Shown here: positions 9,482 through 30,143 of the stretch, in pieces | Numbering within the stretch: the first letter of the stretch is position 1 | Layout: each line of letters opens with the position of its first letter | NCBI GenBank assembly: GCA_050874685.1 | Contig: JBNMLD010000002.1 | Coordinates: 1-50,034 of the forward strand | Direction of reading: 5' to 3' | Source of the DNA: Candidatus Onthoplasma sp. | Lineage (GTDB): Bacteria; Bacillota; Clostridia; Christensenellales; UBA1242 | Length of the DNA stretch: 50,034 nt | The notes under the pieces: generated by a model | Database searches by the model: none | Told to the model about the DNA's origin: nothing | What the model saw: only the letters and a program-made list of their open reading frames with translations | Program-made: the position numbers and the translations under genes

Positions 9482-9834
9482 GGGGGTGAAACAGTTTCGA
9501 CTGTTATGCTTCGATTTGATACGCACGTCGAGAGACATCTCGTTAAATATGCGCTTGTTTTTGTACAAGTTTAAATAAATCAAAACAATAACGAACTTGC
9601 TTACGCTGCTTAATGCGTAGCCGTCAGTTTAGCAGTACCGATATGCTAAAATCTGATGTCAGTTATCGGTTAAAGATTGATTTCGTTGCCTAGCAAATTC
9701 AATTTACTTTTAGGCTAGAAATTTGCAAGTGTTGGTGTGAGTTGCAAATTTTAAGATATACTCATCAACTAAACGTGTAGTGTATGATTTCCAAGTATGG
9801 CAGGACATGGGTGCAAATCCCATCATCTCCACCA
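9482..9834 (+). ncRNA. ssrA: tmRNA (SsrA)
   Basis: 5' GGGGGTG...GTTTCGAC. The 3' end is GGGTGCAAATCCCATCATCTCCACCA (T-arm plus acceptor), with a G3:U wobble in the acceptor stem. The tag reading frame ends ...AAC AAT AAC GAA CTT GCT TAC GCT GCT TAA (..NNNELAYAA*, stop at 9611..9613). Confidence 0.95.
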
Positions 9835-11319: not shown

Positions 11320-11790
11320 TTAATTTTGCCTACGTAAATCTCTTTCAATCTGTTTTGTTTTTAATGTCTCTCGCTTATCTGCAAGTTTTTTGCCACGTGC
11401 AACCGCCAATTCAATTTTAAGATTGCTTCCACTGAAATATGCTTTTAAAGGTACAAGTGTTAGCCTTTCTTGTTCAATTTGCTTTTTTAATTTTTGAATT
11501 TGCACTTTATGCAACAATAATTTTCTATCTCTTCTAGTGTTATCGCCAACTCTGCCAGCATCAAAACTGTTTGCATATTCTTTTATATAACTGTTACGCA
11601 AATAGACTTCATCATTTTTAATATATCCATAGCAATCCACCAAAGAAAAATGCCCTGCACGCACAGATTTGATTTCATCTCCTGTCAAAACGATGCCTGC
11701 TTCCAAGGTTTCTAAAATTGTATATTCAAACCTAGCACGTCTATTTTCCGCCACCAATGTTTGATTTGTTTTTATGTTTTTTTCTGCCAT
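11320..11790 (-). CDS. smpB: SsrA-binding protein SmpB
   Basis: NRRARFEY...EAGIVLTGDEIKS...RDRKLLLHK...GKKLADKRE; typical SmpB length and motifs. Confidence 0.95.
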   Translation of the reverse strand: MAEKNIKTNQTLVAENRRARFEYTILETLEAGIVLTGDEIKSVRAGHFSLVDCYGYIKNDEVYLRNSYIKEYANSFDAGRVGDNTRRDRKLLLHKVQIQKLKKQIEQERLTLVPLKAYFSGSNLKIELAVARGKKLADKRETLKTKQIERDLRRQN

Positions 11791-13535: not shown

Positions 13536-15791
13536 TTATCTTTTGCCTTTTGATGATTTTTTTGAATATGTTTTTGTTGATTTTTTGGTTTGCCTTGTGT
13601 TTGATTTGGCCTTTCCTTTTCCATTTTTTGCATAATTGGCTTTTTTTGACTTGCTATTTTTATTGATAACAAATGCACCAAGTTTTAAATCTGTATCTGC
13701 AAGTGTAAAGTCAATCTGCCTTAATTGAGTGTTGCAATTGGCAACAATGATTTCTATCTTATCGCCAATTTTATAAGTATGCGTTTGCCCATTTAGGCTC
13801 AAACTCATATCATCGTATTCATAGTTATCCATTGGCAGGTCTTCAGCCCTAACAAGCCCTTCAACACCATTGTCAAGTTCAACAAAGATGCCAAATTCTT
13901 GCACACCAGAAATCGTTCCAGCAAATTTTTCGCCCAAGAATTTTTGCATATACACGGCTTTTTTGTAGTCATCAACTTCACGTTCTGCCTCATCTGCGTT
14001 TTTCTCGGTAACACTTGATTGCTCACTTGCCCTTTCAACAATAGGCATATATTTTCGCTTCAATTCGTCCAAAGGCACACCATTGATAAACTGCTTGATT
14101 ATGCGATGAATCATCAAATCTGGATAACGCCTAATCGGGCTTGTAAAATGGCAATAATATTCACTTGCCAAGCCAAAATGTCCCAAACATTGTGGACAAT
14201 AGCGGGCTTTCATCATGCTTCGCAACATCAATTTTTGCATTGTCTGTTCGCCAGGAAGCCCAGCAATCTTTTTTGTGATTATTTGGAAAGACATAGGTTT
14301 GTCGCCGTCAACATCAAGTTGATTTGCAACCCCCATTCCGTTAAGCAAATTTGATATCCTTGCTAATTTGTCAGCATCAGGTTTTTCATGCACACGGTAA
14401 ATAAATGGCAATTTTTTGTCAAAGTAAGTTTTTGCCACACATTCATTTGCCAACACCATGATACTTTCAATAATTTCATGTGCTTCATCTTGAACACGCT
14501 TTTCAATGCTGACAACCTCGCCCGCATCATTTTCCAAAATAAAAGGTTCTGGCAAATCAAATCTAATTTCACCACGTGCTTCACGTATTTTTTTGAGTTT
14601 GTTTGATATTTCTTGATATGTCAAAATGTCCTTATATACATCGGCATATTTATCTATCAAAAGTGTGTCGCCAGCCAAAATATTCATAACTTCGGTATAA
14701 GTCATGCGATGCGATGAACAAATCACAGCTTCTCTTACATTGCTTGAAATCACATTTGCGTCTTTATCAAGCAGTATTTCAACCGACAATGTCAATCGAT
14801 TGACGCCTTCGTTAAGCGAACATATTCCATTTGAAAGTTCTTTTGGAAGCATTGGAATGACTTGATTTGGGAAATACACACTTGTGCCTCTATCATATGC
14901 CGATTTGTCAAGCGCTGAATTTTCAACCACATAATTGCTAACATCAGCAATATGGACATACAATTTATAGCCATCTGCCAAACGTTCAACCGACAATGCA
15001 TCATCAAAATCTCTTGCATCTTCGCCGTCAATTGTTATAACCTTGTGCTTTGTGTAATCTGCACGTTTTTTAAAGTTTTTCAAATCAACAGTTTGACTTA
15101 TTTTTTTTGCTTCGTTCAAAACTTTTGGTTCAAATTTATCAATAAGGTTGAAAGAACGAATAATTGATAATTGTTCTGCTTTTGGTTGGTTTGCTTTGCC
15201 CAAAATTTCAACAATTTTGCCACGTGCAACATTGCCACCAACACTGTCCAAATCTAATTCAACCCACACCTTTTGATTATTTTGAGCATTCAAAGAATTG
15301 CCTTTAAAAATCCTAATTTGAGGCAATCTAGGGTCATCAGGGAAAACAACATCTTTTGATTTTCCTGTAATAAATGTTCCAACAACATGCGTTGTGTTCC
15401 TTTTAAGCACTTTAACAACCCTGGCTTCAATGTCTTGTGATGATTTGGTGTTTGTTATTTCAACCAAACATAAATCGCCGTCTAAAGCACCATTAACAGC
15501 AAATGCTGGTATAAAAAAGTCAGGATAATTTTCAACTTTGGCAAAGCCATAGCCCTTTTTATTTATGCTGATTGTGCCTTTTAAATATCCCCTATCCGCT
15601 GAAATAGAAACTTTGTTTTTATCATCTAAAAACAAACTGCCGTCTTGAATTAAACTCACAATATTATTTTTGACATCAATTTCGGCTTCTTTTGTAAAAG
15701 TTGCCAACTTTTTTGCCAAACTATCTATTGTTGAATAACTTAATTTGTTTTGCCTTATCAATTCTATATAATTTAAATTCATATTAAACAT
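13536..15791 (-). CDS. rnr: ribonuclease R
   Basis: RNB catalytic region (ITIDGEDARDFDDALS), a C-terminal S1 domain (GTISGVQEFGIFVEL) and a Lys-rich tail. Confidence 0.93.
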   Translation of the reverse strand: MFNMNLNYIELIRQNKLSYSTIDSLAKKLATFTKEAEIDVKNNIVSLIQDGSLFLDDKNKVSISADRGYLKGTISINKKGYGFAKVENYPDFFIPAFAVNGALDGDLCLVEITNTKSSQDIEARVVKVLKRNTTHVVGTFITGKSKDVVFPDDPRLPQIRIFKGNSLNAQNNQKVWVELDLDSVGGNVARGKIVEILGKANQPKAEQLSIIRSFNLIDKFEPKVLNEAKKISQTVDLKNFKKRADYTKHKVITIDGEDARDFDDALSVERLADGYKLYVHIADVSNYVVENSALDKSAYDRGTSVYFPNQVIPMLPKELSNGICSLNEGVNRLTLSVEILLDKDANVISSNVREAVICSSHRMTYTEVMNILAGDTLLIDKYADVYKDILTYQEISNKLKKIREARGEIRFDLPEPFILENDAGEVVSIEKRVQDEAHEIIESIMVLANECVAKTYFDKKLPFIYRVHEKPDADKLARISNLLNGMGVANQLDVDGDKPMSFQIITKKIAGLPGEQTMQKLMLRSMMKARYCPQCLGHFGLASEYYCHFTSPIRRYPDLMIHRIIKQFINGVPLDELKRKYMPIVERASEQSSVTEKNADEAEREVDDYKKAVYMQKFLGEKFAGTISGVQEFGIFVELDNGVEGLVRAEDLPMDNYEYDDMSLSLNGQTHTYKIGDKIEIIVANCNTQLRQIDFTLADTDLKLGAFVINKNSKSKKANYAKNGKGKAKSNTRQTKKSTKTYSKKSSKGKR

Positions 15792-25554: not shown

Positions 25555-27636
25555 TTATTCAGCCAATTTTTTTCTATCACCGATGATTTTATCAGCAATA
25601 TTTTTTGGACATTCTGCATAGTGGTCAGGAACCATTGTGAATGTACCACGACCTTGTGTTGAGCCACGAAGGTCTGTTGAATAACCAAACATTTCACTCA
25701 ATGGAACTTCTGCGTGAATTACTTGGCTACCATATTTTGCTTCAGTGCCGGTAAGCACACCACGACGTGATGTCAAGCCACCCATAACTGAACCAAGATA
25801 TTCGTCTGGAGTTGTAACTTCAACTTTCATGATAGGTTCAAGCAAAACTGGGTCCGCTTTAGCCATAGCATCTTTAAATGCCATAGAACCAGCAATTTTG
25901 AACGCCATTTCACTAGAGTCGACATCGTGGTAAGAACCACCCAACAAAGTAACTTTGAAGTCGATAGTTTCATAACCAGCAACAACACCAGCCTTTTTAG
26001 CTTCTTGGATACCTGCATCAATTGGTGGAATAAATTCTTTTGGAACTTCACCGCCAACAACTTTGTTTTCAAAGATGTAGCCTTTATCTCTTTCCAATGG
26101 TTCCATCAAAATCTTACAGTGACCATATTGACCACGACCACCAGATTGTTTGATGTATTTACCTTCAGCTTCAACAGCTTTACGGATAGTTTCTTTGTAA
26201 GCAACTTGAGGTTTACCAACAGTAACTTCAACACCAAATTCACGTTTCATACGGTCAACCAAAATGTCAAGGTGCAATTCGCCCATACCAGCGATAATTG
26301 TTTGACCTGTTTGGTCATCAGTGTATGATTTGAAAGTTGGGTCTTCTTCCATCAATTTAGAGATAGCGATACCTAACTTTTCTTGTGCTTGCTTGTCTTT
26401 AGGTTCGATTGCTTGTTGGATAACTGGTTTCATAAATTCCATTTCTTCCAACTTGATAGGATGATTTTCATCGCAAAGTGTATCACCTGTGCCAGTGTTT
26501 TTCAAACCAACAACTGCGCAAATATCACCTGCCAAAACTTCATCAATATCAGTACGGTTATTTGCATGCATGTGAAGCAAACGACCAATACGTTCTTTCT
26601 TTTCTTTTGTTGCGTTCAAAACGTAACTACCAGCACTTAATTTACCGCTATAAACACGGATAAATGTGATACGACCAACATAAGGGTCTGTTGCAATTTT
26701 GAATGCAAGTGCTGCAAATGGTTCATCATCGCTGTTGTTACGTGTAACTTCTGTGCCATCTTCCAATGTACCTTTAATAGGTGGAACATCAATTGGGCTT
26801 GGCATATAGTCAACAACTGCATCAAGCAATTCTTGAATACCTTTATTTTTAGCAGCTGTTCCGCAAAGAACTGGGAACATTTTAAGAGAACATGTTGCTT
26901 TACGGATACCTTTCTTGATTTCATCAATAGTAAGTTCTTCACCCATGAAGAATTTATCCAATAATTCATCATCAGTTTCAGCAACAGATTCAATCATTTT
27001 TTGTCTGTATTCTTGGCATTGAGCAAGCATATTAGCTGGAATCTCTTCTTCTCTAACATCTTTTCCAAGGTCATCATAGAATACATAGGCTTTCATTTTC
27101 ACAAGGTCAACGATACCTTTGAATGTATCAGCTTCACCAATAGGAAGTTGAAGTGGAACAACATTTGCACCCAAAACGTCTTTCATTGATTTAACTGCTT
27201 TTAAGAAGTTAGCATCGTTGATATCCATTTTGTTTACAAAGCAAAGTCTTGGAACGTTAAACTTGCTTGCTTGACGCCAAACGTTTTCGCTTTGTGCTTG
27301 AACGCCTGCACGAGCACTGAACAATGCAACCGCACCATCAAGAACTTTCAAACTACGTTCAACTTCAACTGTAAAGTCAACGTGTCCTGGAGTATCGATG
27401 ATGTTGATTGTGCAGTCTTGCCACTTACATGTGGTACAAGCAGATGTGATAGTGATACCACGTTCTTGTTCTTGTGCCATCCAGTCCATTGTTGCTTCAC
27501 CATCGTGTACTTCACCAATTTTGTGGTTGATACCGGTGTAGAACAAAATACGTTCAGTGGTGGTTGTTTTACCAGTATCAATGTGAGCCATGATACCGAT
27601 ATTTCTAATTTTTTGTAATGGTACTGTTCTTGCCAT
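25555..27636 (-). CDS. fusA: elongation factor G
   Basis: [22 protein letters not shown] and DTPGHVDFT motifs. 693 aa. Confidence 0.97.
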
Positions 27637-27651
27637 TTAATCCCCCTTAAA

Positions 27652-28122
27652 TTACCAACGATAGTGTGCAAAAGCTTTGTTTGCTTCAGCTTGTCTATGC
27701 ATATCGTCACGTTTTCTGATTGCTCCACCAGCTTGGTTGTAAGCATCAGCAATTTCAGCACTTAATCTTGCGTCCATACCACGTTCGTTACGCTTTCTAG
27801 CAGCCATAACCAACCAACGGATTGCAAGAGTTTGTTGTCTATCAGCGCTAACTTCCATAGGAACTTGATAGTTTGCACCACCAACACGTCTAACTTTTGT
27901 TTCAAGTTTTGGTTTAACGTTTTCAATAGCTTGGTTAAGCACAACCATTGGTTCTTCACCAATTTTTTCAGCGGAAGTTTTCATTGCACTATAAACGATT
28001 GATTGAGCAATACCTTTTTTACCATCTAACATAACTTGGTTAATAAGTTTTGAAACCAAAGCTGAATTGTACAATGGATCAGGTATCACGTCACGCTTTA
28101 CAGCGGCATTTCTTCTTGACAT
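27652..28122 (-). CDS. rpsG: 30S ribosomal protein S7
   Basis: MSRRNAAVKRDV.PDPLYNS...GKKGIAQSIVY...AFAHYRW. Confidence 0.97.
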   Translation of the reverse strand: MSRRNAAVKRDVIPDPLYNSALVSKLINQVMLDGKKGIAQSIVYSAMKTSAEKIGEEPMVVLNQAIENVKPKLETKVRRVGGANYQVPMEVSADRQQTLAIRWLVMAARKRNERGMDARLSAEIADAYNQAGGAIRKRDDMHRQAEANKAFAHYRW

Positions 28123-28165: not shown

Positions 28166-28858
28166 TTAGATTTCCAAACCAATATCATTAAGTAAATCGG
28201 CTTGTTCTTCTTTTGACATTTTTTGTATTTTTTGTCTAAACATAGCCACTGCTTTATCAACAGCAATTTCTTCTTCAGTTTTTTGTTTGCCGATTATAAA
28301 TTCACTGTGTGGTAAAGTTTCAATCCATTTGCAAAATTCTCTCCATTCAGGCAGGCGATGATTTTTGCGTTGATTATAAAGTGTTTTTAATGCTCGATAG
28401 TTTGTTGTAAGCCTTGCAGTTAATTCAAATCCGCTTGGCAAATTATATAAAAGTTTAAGATATTTTTCTGCCTTATCTTCGGCATCTGCTGGGTCAGCAT
28501 CAAGATATTCTTGTTTGATTTCTTCAAGACGTCTCAAAATCAATTTATCAACATACTTATTGCATTGGTCTTCAAGTTTAAACTTGCTTGCCCTGTGCAT
28601 TGTTGATTGACTTGACACAAAATAAACAAATCTATATCTCTCCAATTCAACCCACATTTTATTTGAGCATCTTAAATCAAACGCAACCAAACAACCTGTA
28701 AGGAATTGGTCATGGCCTTCACCTTTTGGTGATTGAGCCAATTTTTCAACTGTTTCTGTAATAACTTCAGTTGGAATATCTGTGTCTATTGCCATTGGAT
28801 ATTTGCTGGCTTTTACACTTTCACTTATATCATAAGTTTTAACATTACTAACTTTCAT
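28166..28858 (-). CDS. divergent ThyX-fold (FAD-dependent thymidylate synthase-like) protein inside the str operon
   Basis: GEGHDQFLTGCLVAFDLRCSNKMWVELERYRFVYFVSSQSTMH parallels the ThyX core GH..FEH..FTF.I....V..Q..RHR..S....S.RY. TTNYRALKTLYNQRKNHRLPEWREFCKWI parallels the ThyX segment N.R.L..F..LR....AQ.EI...A. The start at 28858 (MKVSNVK) has AAGAGG 7 nt upstream. Confidence 0.55.
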   Translation of the reverse strand: MKVSNVKTYDISESVKASKYPMAIDTDIPTEVITETVEKLAQSPKGEGHDQFLTGCLVAFDLRCSNKMWVELERYRFVYFVSSQSTMHRASKFKLEDQCNKYVDKLILRRLEEIKQEYLDADPADAEDKAEKYLKLLYNLPSGFELTARLTTNYRALKTLYNQRKNHRLPEWREFCKWIETLPHSEFIIGKQKTEEEIAVDKAVAMFRQKIQKMSKEEQADLLNDIGLEI

Positions 28859-29007
28859 TTTGTACCTCTTACTATTTAATTTTGCAATGTTATAGTATTT
28901 GGCACTCACTAAAAACTAATGTGACTTTGTTTTAATTGACTATATCATCTCAATCAAAACTTATTAACTAAATTTTGTATTGAGAGTACTTGGTTTTATA
29001 TTAAACC

Positions 29008-29379
29008 TTATTTAGGGCGCTTAGCACCGTATTTACTTCTACCTTGTTTACGTTTTTGAACAGCGGCAGTATCAAGTGCACCACGAACAACGTGATATCT
29101 TACACCTGGAAGGTCAGGAACACGACCACCACGAACCAATACAACATTGTGTTCTTGCAAGTTGTGGCCTTCGCCTGGGATATAACATGTTGTTTCTTTG
29201 CCATTAGATAAACGTACACGACAGATTTTACGTAAAGCTGAGTTTGGTTTTTTAGGTGTTGTTGTTGTAACTGTTAAGCACACACCACGTTTTTGTGGGC
29301 ATTCGTCCAAAAGGATTGATTGTGATTTAGCAGTTTGTTTAACACGACCTTTTCTTACCAATTGATTAACTGTAGGCAT
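29008..29379 (-). CDS. rpsL: 30S ribosomal protein S12
   Basis: [12 protein letters not shown]...[11 protein letters not shown]...[13 protein letters not shown]. 123 aa, colinear with E. coli numbering. Confidence 0.97.
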
Positions 29380-29574
29380 TTTTCCTCCTTAAAAATTTGA
29401 GAAGTGGAAAGTTTTCCACATTTTTGTCACAATCTGTGACGATTTGTTTTGAATTTAAGCATGTTTCCAAAACAAGATTGCATTGCCTAGCAATGCTCGG
29501 TTGATTTTAAACTAAAACCAACAAAAAGCAACCTCTTCCTAATGGCAAAGCAGCATTTTGCCATAGTTGGAACG

Positions 29575-29603
29575 ATTATACTAAATTATAGCCATAAAGT
29601 CAA
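29575..29603 (-). promoter_or_regulatory. promoter of the str operon
   Basis: Minus strand: TTGACT (29603..29598), 17 nt, TATAAT (29580..29575). It is followed by a leader of about 190 nt containing four hairpins. Confidence 0.65.
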
Positions 29604-29892
29604 TAGTTTTAGCAATTTAAACATCTAAATTTTAGTGAGTTTATACCTAACATTTTTTATTTATTTGTTTTAACATTGCACAAATATGCTAGCAAAAACA
29701 AACCAAAATTTCTATATTTTTTTAAGATAATAATTTTATTATTAATATAAATACAGTTTATATCACAATTGAATACCATTGTTATTTTTTATCTCTTAAT
29801 ATGCAAAAGATGATGCTAAATAAAATAAACTTATCTCTATCACTGTTATTTATGAAAATTTCTTTTTTATTACAGTAAAAAATCAAAAGCAC

Positions 29893-29928
29893 AAAAAAAG
29901 GCCTGCCAGAACAAGCCTTTTGATTTTT
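29893..29928. terminator. terminator downstream of rplQ (bidirectional)
   Basis: AAAAGGC-12 nt loop-GCCTTTT, flanked by an A-run and a T-run. Confidence 0.55.
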
Positions 29929-30143
29929 AATTTTGTTTTAACTTTTTCGATTTGTCTTTTATCAAAGCAATGCTTAAACACTGTTAGTTGGTTTGTCTTT
30001 TGCGGTGATAATGCTTAAATGAAAAGTAAAATAATATTGAATGAAACAGGTTGATTAAAACACGCTTAATTTTAATTTAGCAAACTAAATCAATTCAATA
30101 ATTTGATATGTAATGATAAACATTACAAATAGCGCACATGGAA

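Follow-up and report, generated by a model that had tools for sequence, protein, structure and literature searches.

Gene X, our working name for a 230-amino-acid (aa) open reading frame (ORF) lying between the ribosomal-protein genes rpsL and rpsG in the str operon of Candidatus Onthoplasma sp. (contig JBNMLD010000002.1), may be a phage-derived, non-canonical flavin- and folate-dependent pyrimidine-nucleotide C5-methylase, most simply a thymidylate synthase, that has been domesticated in this operon. To this reading, which rests on sequence comparison and structure prediction over the analysed stretch of 50,034 nucleotides (the window) and its homologs elsewhere, we assign a rough probability of 0.55. 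Its product would have the fold of the flavin-dependent thymidylate synthase ThyX (also FDTS), with an active site that departs from every characterised ThyX with which it was compared, and it would belong to a large, unannotated family.

28166..28858, minus strand: gene X, a divergent ThyX-fold protein of 230 aa plus stop (ORF translation, ATG start, stop codon at 28166-28168)

In the proposed mechanism, X would act on a pyrimidine mononucleotide, with flavin and methylene-tetrahydrofolate (methylene-THF) as presumed cofactors for the alkylation of uracil C5. The simplest product would be thymidylate (dTMP) made from deoxyuridylate (dUMP), which a deoxynucleoside-monophosphate (dNMP) kinase would then phosphorylate. 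A phage-type copy, if the presumed direction of transfer is right, would have been captured into the rpsL-rpsG interval of a gut Clostridia (Christensenellales-like) lineage, where it would have gained a C-terminal tail of ~40 residues and become fixed. Probable co-transcription with the str genes would give X strong constitutive expression, and its core would later have been replaced at least once through recombination with phage-borne or other alleles.

The ThyX fold and its altered active site

An AlphaFold2 (AF2) model of X, built from a 43-sequence alignment (pLDDT 88.9, pTM 0.76), was compared with the PDB using Foldseek, and the top 50 matches are all ThyX/FDTS proteins at probability 1.0, with TM scores of 0.47-0.68 (best 0.63/0.68), the same order of secondary-structure elements and only 14-18% identity. 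These matches come from Helicobacter pylori, Thermotoga maritima, Thermus thermophilus, Mycobacterium tuberculosis, and Corynebacterium glutamicum. A search of BFVD with the same model returned two uncharacterised gut-phage family members as its best matches, followed by phage ThyX. PADLOC gave no meaningful match. At the sequence level, Pfam Thy1 (PF02511) aligns residues 32-177 of X with profile positions 33-179 (E=6.2e-5), and sub-threshold Thy1 matches cover nearly the whole profile in several other members of the family. The latter falls into two subfamilies, an X-like type 1, whose other members score 15.8-21 bits with Thy1, and a distant type 2 at 26-33% identity without any Thy1 match. 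Because Foldseek returns ThyX while the scores of profile hidden Markov models (HMMs) fall below their cutoffs, the modelled fold of X is that of ThyX, yet its sequence lies outside the curated ThyX family. The ThyX-like core recognised by eye in the first-pass annotation is thereby borne out, clearly by structure and with a sub-threshold score in Pfam.

For residue-level comparison, the T. maritima ThyX sequence (an exact match to PDB 1kq4, with numbering confirmed by mutant entries) served as the reference together with eight phage ThyX sequences, and conservation was counted over 150 family representatives at 50% identity. The C-terminal mapping, obtained by hhalign with wider profiles, places X residues 138-179 on T. 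maritima residues 148-190 and is the only block robustly aligned; it equates P141 with P151, N153 with N163, R155 with R165, and R164 with R174. The N-terminal half was mapped in an ungapped register in which H49 and R74 of X are 25 residues apart, exactly as are H53 and R78 of ThyX, in agreement with the predicted strand-helix-strand order. This register, which sets RYR against the RHR motif of ThyX, is preferred because it agrees both with the Pfam match, which spans nearly the full profile length, and with the secondary structure of the AF2 model. An alternative hhalign register that sets MHR against RHR was rejected, as it would remove the predicted strand 79-82 and require a gap of 13 residues, and an hhalign comparison of a shallow profile with T. 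maritima ThyX was uninformative. The motifs mapped in this way are as follows.

28712..28714, minus strand: His49, counterpart of T. maritima ThyX His53 by ungapped alignment; conserved in 93% of the 150 representatives and 94% of type 2
28631..28639, minus strand: R74-Y75-R76, in the place of the ThyX RHR flavin-phosphate motif; R74 99%, Y75 100%, R76 variable (R/H)
28592..28615, minus strand: loop S82-S-Q-S-T-M-H-R89, in the place of the ThyX substrate loop E86-...-S88-G-R90-Y91; translation checked against the DNA
28367..28408, minus strand: block T151-T-N153-Y-R155...Q163-R164, corresponding to ThyX N163, R165, and R174; N153 95%, Q163 100%, R164 99%
28325..28360, minus strand: H167-R-L-P-E-W-R-E-F-C176-K-W178, the superfamily's most conserved block, near-identical in type 1 and type 2

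Near-invariant positions in the 150 representatives comprise H49, R74, Y75, S83, S85, M87, H88, P141, G143, N153, Y154, Q163, R164, H167, and W172, of which S83, S85, M87, and H88 are conserved in at least 93% of type 1 and in 100% of type 2. The ThyX positions H53, R78, P151, N163, R174, and probably H178 are kept in the family, each with at least 93% conservation, so that X possesses equivalents of the uracil-binding R174 (R164) as well as of N163 (N153) and H53 (H49). The invariant block H167...E-W-R-E-F-C-K-W, in contrast, is the family's own. Type 2 shares with type 1 mainly the motifs S-x-S-T-M-H-[RK] and R-x-N-H-[RK]-L-x-E-W-R-E-F-C-K-W-x-E-x-L-P; its loci in the Genome Taxonomy Database (GTDB; L056-L077) carry T-Y-K for RYR and lie in phage modules for replication and anti-defence (Tad3, D5 primase, Lar, MazG), surroundings that are less informative on function.

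The substitutions reported in the first-pass annotation, namely RYR for RHR and STMH in the place of S-x-R-Y, together with the TTNYR...QR block, were reproduced (hhalign confirming the C-terminal block only), and the site stays non-canonical on proper alignment. The same annotation had called the gene degenerate, a description that does not hold in view of ~15 near-invariant positions and of purifying selection. By its sequence, gene X is neither an ordinary thyX nor a degenerate one, since it maintains a strictly conserved residue set of its own kind. This set does not account for the binding of a 5'-phosphate, which leaves room for a different substrate.

A phage-borne family beside nucleotide, folate, and flavin genes

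Residues 1-190 of X match positions 8-216 of the 218-position profile phrog_6721 in PHROGs over its full length (E=3.7e-51, 174.9 bits). This is the family of X by sequence, and it carries no functional annotation; the tailed str-operon form of X, by contrast, is not a phage gene. A word-indexed search with X recovered at least ~8,000 homologs, and an exhaustive HMM search, covering 1.84 billion cluster representatives, retrieved 3,272 clusters (50% identity) at E<=1e-3, including 381 at E<=1e-30. Relatives of X occur on 455 viral contigs in IMG/VR and in 19 phage records in INPHARED, the latter infecting Clostridium, Clostridioides, Fusobacterium, and Desulfovibrio and all annotated as hypothetical; "hypothetical protein" is likewise the only public name of cluster members. 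No description of the family was found in the literature, in line with the earlier statement that no similar system has been described. X therefore belongs to a large, unannotated family carried mostly by phages and mobile elements of Firmicutes.

Some homologs (P0122, P0188, P0212, P0242, P0267, and also P0123 and P0136) contain an in-frame HNH_3 endonuclease module inserted in a variable loop past a "YPM" motif, at approximately profile position 34, with an additional sub-threshold AP2 match in P0122, and other members carry a shorter insert remnant without the HNH domain. By analogy, the pattern resembles the invasion of phage nucleotide-metabolism genes by homing endonucleases. A further homolog, P0121 (456 aa), is a tandem X-X fusion in which SSQSTMHR is lost from the first copy and kept in the second; because only one copy keeps this motif, the fusion suggests that the family may form an obligate oligomer with sites shared between subunits, as in ThyX.

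The genes around these homologs recur in a narrow functional range. Families that recur among the 122 genes immediately next to X at GTDB loci are DNMK (4), FolD (3), dUTPase (3), RibBA (2), RibH (2), guanylate kinase (2), SHMT (1), and NrdD (1). The start of the FolD gene falls within the X ORF in three GTDB loci (L010, L011, and L019) and likewise for P0043. Clostridium luticellarii and C. aromativorans have X immediately after ribBA and ribH on the same strand (L025:2097-4555 and L042:2074-4555); elsewhere it is found 44 nucleotides (nt) downstream of SHMT (L046), adjoining DNMK (L037, L038, and L039) or guanylate kinase (L045), and, for P0092, adjoining a dNMP-kinase-like gene. The surroundings of P0020 include thymidine kinase (TK), NrdD/NrdG, and a CCA-adding enzyme. 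In Anaerorhabdus furcosa ATCC 25662 (L043:2104-5300), X and the 3' end of mnmG overlap, and the gene after X encodes a Ham1-like NTP pyrophosphatase; this copy is another insertion beside a conserved housekeeping gene.

A sample of 80 IMG/VR loci (1.19 Mb; 52 clusters at ~90% X identity) presents the same picture: nucleoside-monophosphate kinases are immediate same-strand neighbours of X (median ~0.8 kb), and dUTPase and NrdG occur in 13/52 and 5/52 clusters, respectively. Canonical ThyA, ThyX, and DHFR were each absent from all 80 loci within +-10 kb of X, and none of the three was detected by tblastn and HMM search in the complete phages XP41-N3 (38.6 kb) and FNU3 (97.9 kb), the latter of which encodes FolD, dUTPase, and glutaredoxin. 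The neighbours supply dUMP (dUTPase), methylene-THF (SHMT, FolD), and flavin (Rib proteins) and consume a dNMP product (DNMK). Such surroundings would be expected of a flavin-dependent thymidylate synthase, which is itself common in phages near dUTPase, folate, and deoxynucleotide (dNTP) metabolism genes, and X is the sole candidate for the role in these phage genomes. As the family sits by dNTP, folate, and flavin genes with no canonical synthase nearby, it probably performs nucleotide-level chemistry, quite possibly dTMP synthesis.

Several observations weigh against a thymidylate synthase or a related methylase. X misses the curated Pfam Thy1 cutoff (23.3 vs 24.8 bits) and falls far below that of the NCBIfam model TIGR02170 (thyX), its sole match there (14.3 vs 87.9 bits), and neither the single X protein nor the 43-sequence family profile finds ThyX in the PDB by sequence. 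The ThyX signature RHR-x7-S-x-R-Y, in which RHR contacts the flavin phosphate and S88, R90, and Y91 form the loop, is replaced in X by R74-Y75-R76-x7-Q84-S-T-M, under an N-terminal mapping that is an ungapped alignment fitting the secondary structure rather than one read from inspected coordinates. In the family as a whole, H79 has become Y, and R76 (equivalent to R80), R155 (equivalent to R165; R/L/M/Q), and R89 after the loop are variable, while type 2 has replaced even R78 and R165. The arginines R90 and R147, which bind the dUMP phosphate in T. maritima, have no conserved equivalent; in the hhalign register, R147 aligns with L137 of X, with no conserved basic residue close by. Genes for tRNA repair (CCA-adding enzyme, RlaP) lie near some phage copies. 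Within the 50-kb window, the only part of the host genome covered, the annotated genes include no ThyA or ThyX and no other visible thymidylate, folate, or flavin gene.

If X does make dTMP, thousands of "hypothetical" phage and bacterial genes would be thymidylate synthases missed by current HMMs, with consequences for metabolic reconstructions and predictions of thymidine auxotrophy in gut anaerobes, for the annotation of phage auxiliary metabolic genes, and for the question of which enzymes may be hit or spared by antifolates and by drugs directed at ThyX. Should its product be a different one, a new reaction would have arisen on an old fold. In either case, the locus represents a rare clean example of a foreign gene fixed within the rpsL-rpsG pair, in which the chromosomal gene appears to go on exchanging core sequence with phage alleles, its host-specific tail being retained.

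Residence in the host lineage and competing functions

X lies between rpsL and rpsG in 5/64 loci of GTDB species representatives, namely four metagenome-assembled genomes of uncultured gut Clostridia (Hadza and Nepal samples) and one Candidatus Onthoplasma sp., in the order Christensenellales. Among the contigs read that encode the exact RpsL of the window, an intact 230/231-aa X is in place in 22/22 (9 distinct places), with no empty sites or pseudogenes. The synteny survey suggested in the first-pass annotation, which had raised the alternative of a random insertion, thus found X intact in all relatives examined. Pairwise ratios of nonsynonymous to synonymous substitution (dN/dS) are 0.09-0.23, and together with this intactness they argue that X is not a chance ORF. 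Its GC fraction of 0.33 equals the genomic value, and at 0.64 its codon adaptation index falls between those of ordinary genes (0.49-0.60) and those of ribosomal and elongation-factor (EF) genes (0.73-0.83). Given the intact copies in all 22 contigs, the low dN/dS, and the ameliorated composition and codon usage, X is a long-resident, functional, and probably well-expressed gene rather than a recent or decaying insertion.

The protein consists of two parts with different histories.

28289..28858, minus strand: core ThyX-like domain, residues 1-190, delimited by alignment to 184-205-aa phage and mobile forms
28169..28288, minus strand: lineage-specific tail, residues 191-230, of two helices, acidic, ending in ...DIGLEI

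The tail (KQKTEEEIAVDKAVAMFRQKIQKMSKEEQADLLNDIGLEI), with AF2-predicted helices at 195-212 and 216-225, occurs at ~40 residues and with the ending ...GLEI in all str-operon forms and in none of the 184-205-aa phage and mobile forms. Purifying selection acts on it (omega 0.14-0.49, compared with a core dN/dS of 0.07-0.23). In a distance tree of the core (residues 1-188, neighbour-joining, 300 bootstraps), str-operon cores are monophyletic in only 2% of replicates, whereas the window group and the distant Ca. Onthoplasma allele group with a 196-aa phage clade, to the exclusion of the alleles of two other str-operon loci (L004 and L017), in 95%. The dN of the tail tracks the species tree (0.77 between the window and Onthoplasma, ~0.18 between the window and L015 or L004), and that of the core departs from it (0.18 to Onthoplasma, 0.26 to L004 and L017). 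Because the core tree and core dN conflict with the species tree while tail dN follows it, we infer that recombination with alleles of phages or other sources has exchanged the core and left the tail in place. X has a dS of 0.9-1.5, which exceeds the 0.2-0.4 of flanking genes by a factor of three to four, a gap that codon-bias constraint on ribosomal genes probably explains in part. One apparent recombinant, P0003 (L086), was set aside: this 1831-bp ENA contig matches the phage-like contig L087 over positions 1-1383 (91.5%) and X-rpsG of the window over positions 835-1831 (92.3%), so that it joins phage-like and chromosomal DNA via X and is probably an assembly chimera, although it could be a real recombination junction.

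Beyond the preferred reading, a bolder proposal can be entertained tentatively. The family may be a mechanistically distinct branch of the ThyX fold that lacks the mononucleotide phosphate clamp and relies on its own invariant H88, H167, C176, and Q163, being either a third, so far unrecognised kind of thymidylate synthase, on which some gut Clostridia and many Firmicutes phages would depend for all their dTMP, or a methylase of uracil in nucleic acid (tRNA, rRNA, or DNA), with the tailed str copy acting on the translation machinery.

It is unlikely that X instead makes a non-canonical pyrimidine nucleotide, such as 5-hydroxymethyl-dUMP or, as with PolB, methylated dCMP or UMP, or acts on a di- or triphosphate, in a family that arose for phage DNA modification. 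The same four family-specific residues in a non-canonical site would suit such a role, DNA methyltransferases adjoin X in several phages, and X is tightly linked to dedicated dNMP kinases, which T4-type modified-base pathways likewise have. There is also a precedent in PolB (PDB 4p5a), a ThyX paralog that acts as a UMP/dUMP C5-methylase in polyoxin biosynthesis and whose altered substrate preference shows the fold to be reusable for other pyrimidine nucleotides (PMC5954106). PolB, however, is close to ThyX by sequence (4p5a vs T. maritima ThyX, E=3.7e-34) and belongs to an antibiotic gene cluster, whereas the divergence of X is much greater and its place is in phage nucleotide modules or, in the window, within a ribosomal operon. 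That a bacterial housekeeping operon holds a fixed copy on which purifying selection acts is difficult to square with a function confined to phage DNA modification; no glycosyl-, amino-acyl-, or other hypermodification genes were seen among the enriched neighbours, and X-bearing phages have no other thymidylate synthase, yet have dUTPase and FolD.

Less probable still is that X lacks catalytic activity and serves to bind nucleotides or in regulation, or that it persists between rpsL and rpsG as a selfish mobile passenger that adds nothing to host metabolism. Its phage derivation, the horizontal exchange of core alleles, the homing-endonuclease modules in some homologs, the variable rpsL-X spacer, and the loss of several catalytic ThyX residues would all be compatible with a passenger. 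Strong selection on the core, the near-invariance of ~15 residues across a family of ~3,272 clusters, the lack of empty sites or pseudogenes in the 22 contigs, the ameliorated composition and codon usage, and the consistent association with substrate- and cofactor-supply genes speak against one.

The first-pass annotation had speculatively proposed an RNA or ribosomal target, with X as a ThyX-fold enzyme or mere binding module redirected to a polynucleotide, for example for uracil-C5 methylation of rRNA or tRNA, and with its co-expression with S12, S7, and EF-G pointing to a role in translation. The chemical model for this idea is the TrmFO/RlmFO/MnmG group, with which X would share the use of methylene-THF and flavin on uracil C5. 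Those enzymes have a different, GidA-type fold, and X shows no detectable similarity to them, no match to GIDA, the Pfam family detected here for MnmG, and ThyX-fold proteins only in Foldseek; nor is it basic or equipped with known RNA-binding features (isoelectric point 6.2 at full length and 6.9 for the core, neutral to acidic, unlike typical RNA-binding enzymes). The idea retains a low probability because the arginines for the dUMP 5'-phosphate lack conserved equivalents, the A. furcosa homolog abuts mnmG (encoding an FAD- and methylene-THF-dependent tRNA U34 modification enzyme), a CCA-adding enzyme and RlaP stand beside some phage copies, and the otherwise unexplained lineage-specific tail could be a docking element; fixation inside the str operon can be added to these. 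Location apart, the specific claim of an RNA or ribosomal target found no support, the str position being limited to five GTDB species. Since tail-less phage copies keep every conserved motif, the core chemistry appears independent of the ribosomal context, and with the bulk of the family in phage dNTP-metabolism modules, its tightest linkage being to nucleoside-monophosphate kinases, and the ThyX functions encountered in the literature consulted directed at mononucleotides (PMC5954106), an RNA target is very improbable.

Layout of the str operon and the rest of the window

The immediate surroundings of X, as read from the window, comprise the following elements.

29896..29921, minus strand: terminator-like hairpin past rplQ, between the alpha and str operons (consensus scan)
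29575..29603, minus strand: promoter-like site TTGACT-17-TATAAT, 5' of rpsL (consensus scan, 11/12 matches; a consensus match only)
29008..29379, minus strand: rpsL (S12), upstream of X (translation; Pfam Ribosom_S12_S23 in orthologous loci)
28865..28870, minus strand: ribosome-binding site AAGAGG of X, 6 nt 5' of the ATG (direct sequence reading)
27652..28122, minus strand: rpsG (S7), downstream of X (translation; Pfam Ribosomal_S7 in orthologous loci)
25555-27636, minus strand: fusA, 3' of rpsG, with tuf coming next

Both the ORF with its ribosome-binding site and the spacers of 149 nt (rpsL-X) and 43 nt (X-rpsG), as first annotated, were recovered on re-reading the sequence. The ribosome-binding site is kept as AAGAGG or AAGGTG in relatives, among which the length of the rpsL-X spacer varies. 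The consensus scan revealed no credible terminator between rpsL, X, and rpsG, as had been claimed, the sole terminator-like match being weak and within the X coding region. The TTGACT-17-TATAAT site is the probable promoter of rpsL-X-rpsG-fusA, and, with this site before rpsL and no credible terminator among the three genes, the co-transcription of X with rpsL and rpsG proposed earlier is plausible. Strong constitutive expression would be a sufficient, though unproven, rationale for the position of X.

A survey of this operon cluster in Gammaproteobacteria and Bacilli (PMC8046335) mentions, in the portions considered, insertions between operons and none inside str, and no report of an insertion within rpsL-rpsG was found in the literature; as far as that part of the survey goes, the position of X therefore appears genuinely unusual. 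Housekeeping enzymes do occur inside ribosomal-protein gene clusters, as exemplified by adk and map (both present in L001). The S10-spc-alpha ribosomal operons, at ~45821 to 30144 on the minus strand, lie upstream of rpsL, so that the order across 24158-45821 (minus strand) is S10-spc-alpha and then str (rpsL-X-rpsG-fusA-tuf), not str before S10. The gap between rplQ and rpsL (29380-30143) differs among relatives, which carry there a DUF4932 protein and an NMN transporter (L007), two small ORFs (L093), or an upstream Big_3 protein (L098). In the first of these, a Ca. Onthoplasma relative, a 115-aa ORF without a Pfam match stands between fusA and tuf (L007:9287-9634), a further lineage-specific insertion in the same operon.

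The remainder of the window is ordinary housekeeping chromosome, with genes for MnmA, pyruvate kinase, tmRNA, SmpB, RNase R, PGK, iPGM, and an aminoacyl-tRNA synthetase. Within it, the tmRNA gene (Rfam RF00023, 119 bits) near smpB and the RNase R gene (9482-9834, plus strand; 11320-11790, minus strand; 13536-15791, minus strand) form a compact trans-translation cluster.

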